NCBI GenBank assembly: GCA_013214525.1 | Contig: JABSSG010000024.1 | Coordinates: 44,754 to 108,753, forward strand | Length of the DNA: 64,000 nucleotides | Reading direction: 5' to 3' | Source of the DNA: Rickettsiales bacterium | GTDB taxonomy: Bacteria > Pseudomonadota > Alphaproteobacteria > Rickettsiales > JABSSG01 | Part shown: piece after piece, positions 12,001 to 18,000 of the stretch | How the letters are laid out: every line of letters starts with the position of its first letter | How positions within the stretch are numbered: the first letter of the stretch is position 1 | Program-made: the position numbers

Positions 12001-15000
12001 AATCTCGGACTTTTTACGTATGATTAGTATATATATTTAATATAACATAAAAATCTTAGATAACATGAGCCATTTAATTTTAGAACCATTAGAAAAAGCA
12101 ATTACGCAACTAGAGATTGGCATGGCTCTTAAAGAGCAGTCATCAGATAATGAATTACTTCGTGATGGTGTTATTCAAAGATTTGAATATACTATAGATT
12201 TGGCATGGAAATTATTAGCATATTTACGTGATGCTTTTAGTGAATCCAATTTACCATATAAAGTAGATATAGTAGATTGGAACACCCTCTCTGATGATTT
12301 TAAAAAAATTGTGCAACAGGATAAAATCTTGCTCCACTATTAAGAGTATATACTAATCGTACTTGAAAAATCCTAGTTTTAAAGACAGAAAATGGAATTA
12401 ATATCAAGTTTAAAAATTCGCAAATATCGTTGATATTTAAGACATTTTTAAATGAAGATAGTAGTTTCATTTTCAAACTTTAAAACCGGAGGCTTCAGGT
12501 ATGATTAGTATACATACATCATTTTTTAGTAAGAGAAAGCATTATGCCCATAGCAATTGCTGTCGCAAGTATTGAAGATCCTCCATAACTTATAAACGGA
12601 AGAGTCATTCCTTTAGTTGGGAATAGATTCAATGTCATGCCCATGTTAAAAACTGCTTGCATACCAATTTGTATTAAAATGCCTGAAATCGCAATTATTT
12701 TAAACTTATTACTGCTATGCAAGATAAGATATAAACCACGCGTAATCAAAAGAGCAAACATTATTATTAAAAAACAACAGGCAATAAAACCCATTTCTTC
12801 ACCCATTACTGCAAATATAAAATCAGCATGCGAATCAGGCACATATTTTTTTATAGCACCATCACCTGACCCCACACCATAAAGGCCTCCTTTTTTAAAA
12901 GCTTCCATTGCCTTCTTTATCTGGTAATTACCAAAATTTTGTGGATCCAGAAATAAATCTATCCTTGTTCTTACATGAGGCAAAAAAACATACGCTAAAG
13001 AAATACCAATTATACCAATTATACCCATCACAAGAATCCATAAAATAGATAACCCACCTATAAATAATTCTCCCACCCAAATTACAGAAAACATTATTGC
13101 CATTCCAAAATCAGGTTGCAAAATTAAAAGTAATACTGTCAGCACATAAAAAAATCCTGAAATTATAAAAACAGGAAAATCAGGATGCTTATATCTAATA
13201 GATATAATCCAAGCTATAAAAACAATAAAAAATGTTTTAGCAAGCTCAGAAGGTTGAATTGAAAACATTCCCAAACTTAACCAACGTCTTGCCCCTTTTA
13301 TTTCATGTCCTTTAACTAATACTAAAACAAGAAGAATTAACGATAAAAAAAAGCCAATTATAGCAAATCTTTTCAAACATTGCTCTGTCATCAAAGTTAT
13401 TGAATACATCAATACAAATGCAACTGATAAATATAGCACATGTTTTTTTATAAAATAAAATGAATCTAATTTTAGTTTCAAAGCGATAGCTGGACTTGCA
13501 GTAACTACCATTATCAAACCTAAAAAAAAAGTTATAGCTATAATAACAACTAAAAACCTATCTAGTGATAATAAAGGAGAGATAAATATTGATTTTAAAC
13601 TATCTTTTATCATAAAAAAATCATGATTTGAATCTATGTACTTGAAGATACAATTTTTAAATGTGATGAGTATAAATTAGCTTGTGTAATTATCAATAAG
13701 GTTAGCCATTTTATTAATTTCTTTTCGAACAAAATATCCATTATATGGTTTTGAAACAAACCCTACTTTACCTAAAGCAAAAAGCTTATTCAGTTCCTCA
13801 TTATTCACAACTCCACTCTGTGCTATTATTGCAATATCATTATATTTTTTATCAGCCCTAATTTCACTAATTACACTTACTCCTGAAATTGGCATCATTA
13901 TATCTACAAAAATCATATCTATATCTCTATAGTTACTTTTTAAATATTTAAAGAACTCATCTACTTTGGTAAATGTTTCCACTTTATGACCTAACTTAGT
14001 AAGTAATATACTTGCAGATGCACAACATAATTCTTCATCATCTATAAACAATATATTACAAGAGCGTATTGTTTCCATATTCTGTTGGCATCCAGAAACT
14101 TCCTCTTGAATACCAAAAGGAATAAAAAAATAAAAAGTACTACCACGAGAATTTTGGTTATTTTCCACCCATATTTTTCCATCATGCCTATCTATAATTT
14201 TTTTAGCTAAAGCCAACCCTAAACCTAATCCCTTTTTGACTGACTCACCATCCGTTTTATCTCCTCTTACAAACAGTTCAAATATTGAATTTAAATCTTT
14301 TTCCTCAATTCCTTTTCCTTGATCTTTTGTAGCCACACATAGACCATTAACTTTTTTATTTTGTGCATTCTCCAAAGTATAACTATAAATATCTACTGTA
14401 ATTGTACTATTTTCTGGACTAAATTTTATAGCATTCATACAAACATTTGAAAAAACTTGCTCAATACGATATTTATCACAAACAATTTGATATCCTTCAA
14501 TATCTCCTAGTTTCTGATCCGACAAAGAAACAGTTATATTCTTCTTATGTGCAAGAATTGCTATATCCTGAATCATATTTTTTATCAACTCTAGAAGATT
14601 AACCCTTCTCATATCAAATTCTGAATCTCTAGAGATAGATGATACATCTATCCAATCATTGACCAAATAAGCTAATTTCTGAGTGTTTTCAGCAATATGT
14701 TTTAGTGAATCTGATATCTTCTTCTTAGAATATTGATTGTATTGATCCAATAAGTCATTAGCCAAAATATCAACCACATGCACAGGTCCCTTAATTTCAT
14801 GACTTACAAAATTTAAAAATCGTTCTTTAACAGCCAAAGATTTTTCTAATTCTTGTGTTTTCTTAGAAACTCTCCTGCGTAAAACTTCACCAATGCCAAA
14901 ATGGAATTGATCTTTACTTCCCGCAAAGATCACACAAAATAGAATGATCATGGAATACAAGTAAATGGCAATATTAATATTTTGTGAATCTACTTGAAAT

Positions 15001-18000
15001 TCTATAAAACCATACTGTAAAATAAATATTAAGTATCCAAAACATGTACCAATAAACATACATATTAAAAACATCAACCAATCTATTACCAAGAGAGTAA
15101 TTAATAACCCTATCGCAGTATTTATAATCCATTCCAACGAGAAATTGTTCTTTATTAACAAATATCCTATGTGCATTGGTATAGATACAGTAACAGCTAC
15201 ATACCAATAAAGAGATAGATATTTTTTTAACTTCTCTGGCCAATAATCCCTAAAAAACAGTATCACACACAATATTGTAGCTAGCACTCTAAAAAAAAAG
15301 CTTTCTAAATCAGGTACACCTTGAATATAAACACGTATAAAATACGCTAACGGATAATTAATGATGCCAAAAATAGCAAATATATGATAAGGTGCACCAA
15401 AATTTGCAACTCTTTCATCACAAAATTTTAATATCTTTTTTAAATTACAATATTTAAGTAATTTTTTTAAATTACTATAACGTTGCAATACGTGAATTAA
15501 TCCTACCCTCTTAAGCATTAACTTAATATTTTTGTATTAAATAAGTTATCATTGTATTATTATCATCAGTAAATTTTCTTACTAACTTTAAATGATTCTT
15601 TTGCAAAATACCATCTACAAATTCCCTTCTGAATTTCCTTGACACTGCTACATGATATTTTTGATTCTTGGATATCATAATTCTTTCATTAAGAAAATAA
15701 AAACTTTGTTCTTCCTTAGCAACAAGATTAACATATACAGCACAACTCTTCGCACTCCACTCATAAGAATACTTAAACTGTTCTGGATCAAAATCATTTA
15801 CATGAAAAATATCCTTGAAATAACGCATTATGGATAAAGCAAGTTGCTTAACATAAGAATTATCATATGCATTTTTTATGCTTAATAAATCCTTATTACA
15901 ATCCACTGTAAATATACAATACTCACCTTTCTCTAAAAAATTAGCAAATGAAGAAAAGATTTTATTAATCTCAATATTGGTAAAATTACCTAATGTCCCA
16001 CCTAAAAATAACAGACAAGTTTTACCATCACAATACCTCTGCAATTGTGTTGCACAATCTACTTTATAAGAAAAACTATCAACATTTCTCATATGATCTT
16101 CTATAAATTCAGATGCTTTTATTGCATATTCTAAATTTGTGTCTAATGCAGTATAGGAAGCAAGATTTTGTAAAGACTTCAATAATGGTAAAACTTTTGT
16201 TCTCAATATATATTCAGGACCTGGACCTATTTCAACTATATTACAATTTTCACCTAAAATTTTTGCAATTTCGTGACTGTTTTTTACTAAAATTTCAGTT
16301 TCTGTCCTAGTCAAATAATAACCTGTTTCTTCTTGTACTAATCTTTCATAATAATCAGTATCTGAACAATATATATATTTTGTAAGATGACCAGAACGTT
16401 TTCCTAAAAATAAATCTTTATAATCTTTTATAGCCTCATATGGTATAATTTTTTTTGTTGATGCTAACGATACTGGCTGAATTTGTGCTACGTTTGCGTG
16501 CTGCTTCATAACATTTCTACTGTTAAATAAAAACTGGAGTTTTCAAGCATAATTAGTATTTACTCCTTGTGCTTGAACTTTCCTATTTTCTACCTTAAAA
16601 TTTTGTAATCTTCAAATACGAGAAGTATATTAATACAATTTCGTTAACTTACTAGAGTATTTTCACCTACTTACAAAAAACTTAACTCACGTTAAGTACT
16701 ATGACAGATTAAAATTAATCGAAAAGGTTTTTAACTTTTTTGAAAAAACTTTCACATTTAGGACTAGAATGATTATTTGCAGCATCTTTGTCAAATTCTT
16801 GAAGTAATTCAATTTGTTTTTTTGTCAAGTTAACAGGTGTTTCAACCTGAATATGTACATATAAATTACCTCGCGCTGTTGATCTTAATCTACGCATCCC
16901 CTTTTCTTTGATTCTAAATTTATCATTAGATTGCGTACCAGCTGGAATAGTTAATTTTAGTTTTTTTCCATCAATAGATGGTACTTCAATCTCTCCTCCT
17001 AAAGCTGCTGTAACCATCTTTATGGGCACTTCACAATGCAAGCTATCTCCTTCCCTTGTGAATATAGAGTGATGTGATATAGAAATAAAAACATATAAAT
17101 CACCATTCTGACCTCCCCTATAGCCAGGTTCCCCTTCACCTGTAAGTCTTAATCTTGTTCCATCTTCAACTCCTTGCGGTATATTAACTGAAAGTGTTCT
17201 TTCCTTACGAACACTACCACTACCTAGACAGGCCTTACAAGGATCTTTTATAATTTGTCCTTCACCCTTGCAAGTATGACAAGTTCTCTCCATTGAAAAA
17301 AAACCCTGCTGAGCTCTAATATAACCAGCTCCTTTACAAGTATTACAACTAATTAGGTCAGAAGTTTCACTACCACTACCATTACATGTGTCACATTTCA
17401 CAGAAGCTGTAAAATTAATATCAGATGCCTTGCCAGAAAAAGCTTCCTCCAGAGAAATTGTCATATTATAACGAAGATCTGCTCCTCTAATAACTTTTCG
17501 AGAAGTTTTTCTTTTTCTTCCATGACCTAAATCACCAAAAAACTCGCTAAAGATATCAGAAAAAGCACCTCCACCAAATTCAAAGCCTTCAAAACCCTGT
17601 TTTCCTCCAAAAGGCCCTCCGCCGCCAGCACCTGCTCCTCCTTGGAAAGCATTATGACCAAGTTGATCATAGGCAGCTCGCTTTTGATCATCATTTAAAA
17701 TTCCATAAGCTTCGCTTATATCTTTAAACTTTTGTTCAGCACTTTTATCATCAGGATTTTTATCTGGATGATACTTCAATGCTAATTTTCTATAAGCCTT
17801 TTTGAGCTCATCTTTACTAGCATTTTTATTTACCCCTAGAATCTCATAATAATCGCGTTTGGAAGACATTTATCTTAAATTTAATTATAACCCTATAAAA
17901 CAATATGCCCCTGCTCTTACAGAGGCATATAAAATTTTGTAAATCATAATTTCATACAAATATGATTTACTTCTTTTTCTCACTTTCATCAACTTCTTTG

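Follow-up and report, generated by a model that had tools for sequence, protein, structure and literature searches.

What does an amino-acid methyltransferase do beside a membrane-bound sensor kinase in a bacterium of the Rickettsiales? The question arises from a stretch of 64,000 nucleotides (the window) of Rickettsiales bacterium contig JABSSG010000024.1 (assembly GCA_013214525.1, positions 44,754 to 108,753), in which a gene resembling egtD, the histidine N-alpha-methyltransferase gene of ergothioneine biosynthesis, is followed on the same strand by a gene for a hybrid histidine kinase (Table 1). The junction reads ...AAA TAT TAA gtta ATG CTT... (methyltransferase stop, spacer, kinase ATG), which agrees with the four nucleotides given in the original prediction as far as the annotated start is concerned. 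With about even confidence, we regard the pair as a signalling module of the Cqs/Lqs type, in which the kinase is the receptor of a signal, an N-methylated hydrophobic amino acid, that is made by the methyltransferase. The autoinducer synthase CqsA or LqsA, dependent on pyridoxal phosphate (PLP), would be replaced in such a module by an EgtD-fold methyltransferase.

The methyltransferase belongs to the EgtD family by both sequence and fold. It matched Pfam PF10017 (Methyltransf_33) with E 1.7e-42 and 146 bits against a cut-off of 23, covering profile positions 30–303 of 304, and EgtD crystal structures with E 1.6e-11 in phmmer. All the EgtD motifs originally listed for it were present, among them YYLTRTE (aa 64), EIGPGPEY (aa 93), FLGGTLGNF (aa 168), and NAYDNS (aa 213). 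Chance would not produce a similarity of this degree. The AlphaFold2 (AF2) model, with a predicted local distance difference test score (pLDDT) of 75, had the two-domain EgtD architecture and aligned with the EgtD structures of M. smegmatis and M. tuberculosis at TM-scores of 0.80–0.83 (about 0.82; E 3e-23), while other methyltransferase folds scored 0.48 or less. EgtD was also the best match in NCBIfam and the Protein Data Bank (PDB). Profile and fold searches alike thus keep the protein in the EgtD/Methyltransf_33 family. The S-adenosylmethionine (SAM) site is shared with EgtD; the subfamily differs from it in SAM motif I, which is longer by four inserted residues (E-I-G-P-G-P-E-Y-x-x-x-x-K).

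The substrate-binding residues fall into two sets. In EgtD, Tyr56, Tyr206, and Ser284 hold the carboxylate of the substrate and Asn166 (with Gly161) holds its alpha-amine, whereas the imidazole is read via a water positioned by Thr213 and via Glu282 (PMC8593015). According to our alignment, the residues for the alpha-amino and alpha-carboxylate groups are kept: Tyr64, Gly170/Thr172/Asn175, Tyr215, and Ser290 correspond to EgtD Tyr56, Gly161/Thr163/Asn166, Tyr206, and Ser284, the GxTxxN motif is retained, and Asn175, Gly170, Tyr64, Tyr215, and Ser290 are invariant across the six closest homologues. The residues that read the imidazole are lost; the Thr213 loop lacks two residues as well as the threonine, and Glu282 is replaced by Ala288. 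Two further positions are changed, Met252 to Val260 and Phe47 to Tyr54. An exhaustive HMMER search over 1.84 billion representative sequences yielded 3004 relatives, and the same division was seen in the best 150 of these 3004. Backbone-binding residues were kept in nearly all of the 150, the Glu282 position was hydrophobic or small, the Thr213 column was a gap, and the full EgtD signature (Phe47, Thr213, Asn217, Met252, Glu282) was confined to a few distant hits. Both Glu282 and the Thr213 loop were missing in the methyltransferase and its approximately 100 nearest representative relatives. The protein also failed the NCBIfam EgtD equivalog TIGR03438, with 127.2 bits against a cut-off of 290.9. 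Because the family lacks the histidine-binding residues and the protein misses this cut-off, the name "L-histidine N(alpha)-methyltransferase", which an identical protein carries at NCBI (Prokaryotic Genome Annotation Pipeline, PGAP), is an over-annotation. The assignment to EgtD-type histidine methyltransferases made in the original prediction therefore holds for fold and chemistry and fails for histidine as the substrate.

The best sequence match in the PDB was 4pip, the M252V/E282A variant of EgtD engineered to accept tryptophan, which was also the top structural match by a small margin over wild-type EgtD; the methyltransferase naturally has Val and Ala at these two positions. Natural EgtD homologues that form tryptophan or tyrosine betaine exist. 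Within the kinase-linked clade the Met252 position is occupied by Val, Leu, Trp, or Asn and the Glu282 position by Ala, Ile, Leu, Val, or Phe, so that the identity of the substrate cannot be read off. Judging from its residues, the enzyme probably N-alpha-methylates a free amino acid whose side chain is not an imidazole and is most plausibly hydrophobic or aromatic. Methylation of protein N-termini was rejected on the conserved residues that bind a free carboxylate, and EasF (dimethylallyltryptophan N-methyltransferase, TIGR03439) was rejected at 93.1 bits against a cut-off of 205.55. Three EgtD-like relatives, P0017 (locus L010, 6001-7029), P0023 (L034, 334-1335), and P0026, have signal-peptide-like N-termini. 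The first two lie beside transporters of the major facilitator superfamily and have no kinase link, and P0023 is also near dioxygenase, CN-hydrolase, and aminotransferase genes. As a secreted SAM-dependent enzyme would be odd, these N-termini may be mis-called starts, or the proteins may form a separate metabolite cluster.

The remark that no EgtB-, EgtC-, or EgtE-like gene lies nearby was borne out when all open reading frames (ORFs) of at least 150 aa in the 64-kb window were scanned against Pfam: none encoded EgtB (FGE-sulfatase/DinB), EgtC, EgtE, EanB, or OvoA. No FGE-sulfatase/EgtB gene was present in 12 related methyltransferase loci with Pfam-annotated neighbours, and no association with egtB (or egtA, egtC, egtE) or eanB was detected in the window or these 12 loci.

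The downstream gene encodes, as originally described, a multi-transmembrane hybrid kinase with a receiver domain; HisKA, HATPase_c, and Response_reg follow approximately 215 aa of membrane helices. The phospho-transfer residues His240, Asp539, and Lys590 are intact. The membrane part had no match in Pfam or NCBIfam. Its AF2 model (aa 25-215, pLDDT 75) consisted of an amphipathic helix and six long transmembrane helices connected by short loops, and no large periplasmic domain was modelled. The sensor is the best-conserved region of the kinase, with 43% identity to the kinase of locus L009 vs. 37% overall.

Residues 1-200 of Vibrio cholerae CqsS, in a version checked only by seven published residue positions, matched a profile of 18 sensor sequences in hhalign (99.6%, E 1.3e-24, 137 columns) and the window kinase alone in blastp (E 5e-9). 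This query carries W104, S107, F160, F162, F166, C170, and H194 at their published positions, and CqsS is a six-transmembrane hybrid kinase with a C-terminal receiver, encoded beside its synthase, in which Trp104 and Ser107 tell amino and hydroxyl head groups apart (PMC3376566). The hhalign alignment places CqsS Trp104 at Trp130 of the kinase, which is nearly invariant in the family, and Ser107 at Asn133; the region of the sixth helix (CqsS Phe160/162/166 and Cys170) lies outside the alignment. When the sensor profiles were used in word-indexed protein searches, 3–5 matches were obtained, none of them named CqsS or LqsS. The sensor is homologous to the CqsS/LqsS autoinducer receptors, and a response to a small ligand is predicted from this homology. 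A domain without a Pfam or NCBIfam model is thereby given an identity.

The pairing with the kinase is conserved in many related genomes. At least 15 loci have the pair, whose genes may be tandem, convergent, or divergent (Table 1) and whose neighbourhoods are unrelated. The five closest homologues of the methyltransferase (47–58% identity) all have the kinase directly downstream within a dnaJ–methyltransferase–kinase–ftsW neighbourhood, and this linkage taken alone could reflect inherited synteny. Mere inherited synteny was rejected for the pair as a whole because it occurs in three orientations and in five or more unrelated neighbourhoods, with flanks as different as dnaKJ/ftsW, iPGM/nrdR, SNF2/transposase, and flhA. 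The genes are convergent for P0013 and P0014, between iPGM-lepB-rnc-era and nrdR-glyA, overlap by 17 nt for P0020, near a SNF2 helicase and a transposase, and overlap by 4 nt for P0040; overall, the spacing in other lineages is either 18 nt or an overlap of 4 to 17 nt. The P0022 gene is divergent from a class-I methyltransferase and a kinase with a duplicated sensor domain. Look-ups starting from the methyltransferase found an adjoining kinase in 8 of 11 relatives with retrievable context, and the linkage was still present at methyltransferase identities down to approximately 22%. Kinase orthologues of the same architecture adjoin methyltransferase genes in L001, L007, L009, L012, L015, and L018.

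The reciprocal view was provided by the sensor domain, whose alignment was scanned over 185,579 species genomes and detected 17 loci. Nine of these loci bear the label Rickettsiales, Alphaproteobacteria, or Rickettsia, and in six of the nine the methyltransferase adjoins the sensor kinase: L014, L018, and L020 (tandem), L015 (convergent), and L016 and L019 (divergent). The distance matrices of the methyltransferase and of the sensor are correlated (Mantel r 0.91, p 2e-4), a value to which shared species history contributes. Pattern-based scans with the methyltransferase alignment returned no loci in genome or metagenome contigs. The kinase of L033 (591-2549, minus strand) has two tandem six-transmembrane sensors and, together with a co-oriented Methyltransf_11/25 class-I methyltransferase (2568-3428, minus strand), is divergent from the EgtD-like gene. 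A stand-alone 209-aa paralogue of the sensor (P0167) with no kinase part is encoded in L009 (8830-9459, minus strand), directly upstream of the kinase of the pair. Two CqsS-like kinases, one of them methyltransferase-linked, occur in L018 and L021 (CAMCSP010000108.1 and CAMCSP010000034.1), from a metagenome-assembled genome (MAG) whose label "Rickettsia typhi" looks doubtful.

One lineage carries the pair in a more complete setting. The gene order in Candidatus Paracaedibacter symbiosus (L020) is methyltransferase (PF10017, E 3.7e-40), 426-aa LqsS-like kinase, and LqsR-family regulator, the last of which matched over its full length (E 4e-41) PDB entry 6sy9, presumably Legionella LqsR. The aligned Asp of the regulators fits the published D108 if the 6sy9 chain has a 20-aa tag, and no paper mentioning this entry was found in the literature searched. 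Locus L020 is a cluster of the lqs type, with the methyltransferase in the enzyme slot in place of LqsA. The receiver, which is fused to the kinase in the window lineage, is a separate 127-aa gene overlapping the kinase end in L014.

Other enzymes were found beside sister sensors. Six gammaproteobacterial MAG loci (L022-L025, L027, and L029; e.g., L023 5196-8332) encode a Haem_oxygenas_2 protein, an LqsS-like six-transmembrane kinase of approximately 430–460 aa without a receiver, and then an LqsR-like response regulator of 330–346 aa, which matched 6sy9 over its whole length (E 2e-46). The first protein is a heme-oxygenase-like diiron enzyme with weak similarity to BesC, and the arrangement resembles a further cluster of the lqs type whose synthase slot holds an enzyme other than LqsA. 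A plasmid of Paraburkholderia caribensis (L031, NZ_CP013105.1, 3921-7562) has a gene with the C-terminal domain of 3-oxoacyl-ACP synthase III (KAS-III-like), located 28 nt upstream of a gene for an 858-aa hybrid kinase, which has a CqsS-like sensor at its N-terminus and is annotated just as "response regulator". The enzyme slot beside CqsS-type sensors thus looks swappable, as expected of a synthase.

That the methyltransferase supplies the ligand is argued mainly from this recurring design of a small-molecule enzyme with a receptor, as in CqsA–CqsS, LqsA–LqsS, and phcBS. The phcBSRQ operon of Ralstonia solanacearum encodes the methyltransferase PhcB, a quorum-sensing synthase co-transcribed with the sensor kinase PhcS (PMC10653808). 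The likeness lies in a SAM methyltransferase joined to a kinase that detects its product, with an LqsR-family regulator, PhcX, associated. PhcB differs in methylating 3-hydroxy fatty acids to esters and is likened to our enzyme by function only; we know of no sequence relationship between PhcB and EgtD. A CqsS-type sensor is not established for PhcS, and the Phc system is a functional analogy only. The original prediction had called the combination of such a methyltransferase with a membrane sensor unfamiliar. The design is not unprecedented, as phcB-phcS illustrates with a different substrate and a fatty-acid ester signal, whereas for sensor kinases linked to EgtD-like/Methyltransf_33 enzymes no paper was found in the literature searched, the coverage of which was incomplete.

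The closest known systems are CqsA/CqsS and LqsA/LqsS/LqsR. Their kinases have a sensor homologous to that of the window kinase, followed in CqsS by HisKA, HATPase_c, and receiver domains, and are likewise encoded beside a small-molecule enzyme; an LqsR-family regulator is present in the Paracaedibacter cluster. Unlike CqsA and LqsA, which are PLP-dependent acyl-CoA transferases, the partner here is an EgtD-fold SAM methyltransferase, and the signal is therefore probably not an alpha-hydroxyketone. No LqsR or Hpt (histidine phosphotransfer protein) gene was found in the window, and the kinase has its own receiver. The carriers, unlike those of Cqs and Lqs, are Rickettsiales/Holosporales-like symbionts, and CqsS Ser107 is Asn. 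No report of Lqs or Cqs in Rickettsiales or Holosporales was found in the literature searched, again with incomplete coverage. The receptor family and the overall logic are known; new are the class of synthase, the probable chemistry of the signal, and the host range.

The module would operate as follows. Using SAM, the methyltransferase would methylate the alpha-amine of a free hydrophobic or aromatic, non-imidazole amino acid, possibly up to the trimethyl betaine. The amphiphilic product would leave the cell, build up, and be bound inside the six-helix bundle of the CqsS-type receptor. Binding would shift the kinase/phosphatase balance of the receptor, with phosphate passing from His240 to Asp539 and on to some Hpt protein and regulator; in the Paracaedibacter variant, transfer would go straight to the adjacent LqsR-type regulator. 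That the product is the ligand of the receptor, what this product is, and which genes are controlled, we infer. The suggestion of a signal-producing or signal-modifying enzyme with its sensor, already made in the original prediction, gains strong circumstantial support from the CqsS/LqsS-type sensor and from the LqsR-type regulator of one lineage.

A wider proposal can be made more tentatively, at somewhat below even confidence: EgtD-fold methyltransferases may be an unrecognised class of autoinducer synthase, and CqsS-type receptors a platform whose neighbouring synthase has been swapped repeatedly. The swaps would comprise the PLP acyltransferase, the EgtD-like methyltransferase, the heme-oxygenase-like diiron enzyme, and the KAS-III-like condensing enzyme. 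Each swap would create a new chemical language, and N-methylated or betaine amino-acid signals would be that of Rickettsiales/Holosporales-like symbionts of protists. To our knowledge, Cqs/Lqs signalling uses one kind of signal, the alpha-hydroxyketones, and one family of synthases, and the deeply conserved pairing of CqsS-type receptors with an EgtD-fold methyltransferase points to a new signal class. A candidate synthase and a candidate receptor have already been identified, so the idea is directly testable. If it is true, reduced-genome, host-associated bacteria of the Rickettsiales/Holosporales type keep a dedicated chemical sensing circuit, which could time transmission or communicate with the host, like LAI-1 in Legionella. 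The data also correct a systematic annotation, "L-histidine N-alpha-methyltransferase", for proteins without the histidine-binding residues.

Several points weigh against the signalling module. Product and ligand are predicted from sequence and context, and the adjacency would suit equally well a signal-modifying or signal-inactivating enzyme or an enzyme expressed under the control of the kinase. Many CqsS-like kinases occur without the methyltransferase, and the methyltransferase relatives P0016, P0017, and P0023 have no kinase link. Our search for CqsA or LqsA covered 64 kb, and such a gene could be located elsewhere in the genome. In its first half, the sensor is similar to the corresponding part of CqsS, which a review links to features common to alpha-hydroxyketones, so the ligand could still be alpha-hydroxyketone-like and not an amino-acid betaine; moreover, the CqsS query behind the profile comparison was validated at seven positions only. 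Finally, a presumed intracellular symbiont has no obvious need for quorum sensing.

The strongest of the alternatives is that the methyltransferase modifies or quenches a signal instead of making it. It would N-methylate an amine-bearing ligand made elsewhere, either an amino-alpha-hydroxyketone such as Am-CAI-1 or a host amino acid, and so tune or end what the CqsS-type receptor perceives. The conserved pairing fits this as well as it fits a synthase, the head-group-discriminating Trp104 is kept as Trp130 (with Ser107 changed to Asn133), and the N-terminal half of the sensor resembles alpha-hydroxyketone receptors. However, no AONS-like aminotransferase of the CqsA/LqsA type was detected in the window or in the fetched methyltransferase–kinase loci, all three carboxylate-binding residues of EgtD are kept, which suits a free amino acid and not an amino-ketone, and the Paracaedibacter methyltransferase occupies the place of lqsA. 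We consider signal modification unlikely, though it deserves some weight.

Alternatively, the product of the enzyme could be an amino-acid betaine that serves as compatible solute or protectant, with the kinase as a sensor of membrane or osmotic stress and the two genes neighbours through co-regulation. Betaines are classic osmoprotectants, and the window contains three MscS-like channels and three transporters of the sodium:solute symporter family (SSF). Purely membrane-embedded sensors of hybrid kinases can respond to the state of the membrane, and EgtD-type enzymes do form betaines (PMC9103826). Against this, the sensor is homologous to ligand-binding autoinducer receptors and has an LqsR-family partner in L020, and sister sensors are paired with non-osmolyte enzymes (the diiron and KAS-III-like ones). 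A hydrophobic specificity pocket would be unneeded in a bulk osmolyte pathway, and no betaine transporter is linked to the pair. An osmolyte function is accordingly given slightly less credit than signal modification.

The last two alternatives conflict with the data on residues and genomic context. A host-directed effector, the other suggestion of the original prediction, received no specific support; it would methylate a metabolite or a protein of the host, and the kinase would regulate its deployment. In its favour, the pair is carried by Rickettsiales/Holosporales-like symbionts, the window encodes a type IV secretion system, and some unlinked relatives (P0017, P0023, P0026) have signal-peptide-like starts; however, the window methyltransferase has no signal peptide and nothing suggesting a secretion signal, its active-site residues suit a free alpha-amino acid, and the signal-peptide-bearing P0017 and P0023 are not kinase-linked, which makes an effector very improbable. 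An ordinary EgtD would make hercynine from histidine for an ergothioneine pathway whose egtB and remaining genes lie elsewhere in the genome, and the kinase would be an unrelated neighbour. This reading agrees with the PGAP name and the best NCBIfam and PDB match but hardly merits belief in view of the bit score (127 against 290.9), the absent Glu282 and Thr213 loop, the lack of EgtB in the examined loci, and a kinase linkage that outlasts rearrangements.

Table 1. Features of the methyltransferase–kinase locus (positions in the window) and orientation of the gene pair across loci
Feature	Position or loci	Strand	Description and evidence
Methyltransferase gene	15523..16509	-	328 aa; predicted EgtD-fold (Methyltransf_33) SAM-dependent amino-acid N-alpha-methyltransferase, non-histidine branch
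Spacer gtta	15519..15522	-	4 nt, methyltransferase stop to annotated kinase ATG; sequence read
Hybrid sensor histidine kinase, CqsS-type	13677..15518	-	613 aa; six-transmembrane sensor, HisKA, HATPase_c, receiver
Kinase N-terminal 24 codons, non-conserved	15447..15518	-	orthologue alignments start only at aa 25-33
CqsS/LqsS-like sensor domain	14904..15446	-	aa 25-205; amphipathic helix and six transmembrane helices; hhalign, blastp, AF2 model
HisKA (dimerization and histidine phosphotransfer), phospho-acceptor His240 (SHEIKGP)	14634..14828	-	PF00512, aa 231-295
HATPase_c catalytic domain	14115..14477	-	PF02518, E 1.6e-22, aa 348-468
C-terminal receiver, Asp539, Lys590	13740..14054	-	PF00072, E 5.4e-14, aa 489-593
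AT-rich intergenic region	16510..16714	-	205 nt, dnaJ stop to methyltransferase start; ORF map and sequence
Tandem methyltransferase–kinase	window, L001, L002, L004, L012, L014, L018, L020, L036		
Convergent methyltransferase–kinase	L007, L009, L015		
Divergent methyltransferase–kinase	L016, L019, L033		

The intergenic region upstream of the methyltransferase is likely the promoter region of the two-gene unit. The window has a GC content of approximately 30%, at which a consensus promoter scan was uninformative, promoter-like matches being rarer than in shuffled sequence; a terminator scan, likewise uninformative at this GC content, detected no terminator between the two genes. The start of the kinase is uncertain because homology to orthologous kinases begins only at approximately aa 25. 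The true start may be internal, e.g., TTG at codon 11, and the gap between the genes would then be wider.

According to the Pfam scan, the upstream neighbours are htrA, dnaK, and dnaJ, and the downstream ones are ftsW, murG, glpX, and recJ; rvh-type type IV secretion genes, SSF transporters, MscS channels, and relA/spoT are located farther off. The secretion genes (39644-44921, plus strand) comprise virB8, a small virB9-like ORF, virB10/TrbI, virB11, and virD4 and fit a host-associated lifestyle of the Rickettsiales type. Between glpX and murG there is a 306-aa low-complexity ORF rich in Lys, Gln, Ser, and Thr (9744-10664, minus strand), with an N-terminal hydrophobic segment and no Pfam match; the syntenic slot of L001 is occupied by a 461-aa gene, likewise without a Pfam match. 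The interval between murG and ftsW contains, on the opposite strand (12065-12343, plus strand), a gene fragment encoding 92 aa of a nucleotidyltransferase-substrate-binding (HepT-like) protein. It is absent from the syntenic L001 and is probably a toxin-antitoxin remnant. One SSF domain is fused to HisKA and HATPase_c (56027-58783, plus strand), resembling the CbrA/CrbS transporter-kinases, and two more SSF proteins are encoded at 27478-28842 and 46357-48819 (both plus strand), one of them 820 aa in length with a long C-terminal region without a Pfam match. The three MscS-type channel genes (44999-45955, plus strand; 60921-62456 and 62579-63517, minus strand) represent an unusual density for a small genome.

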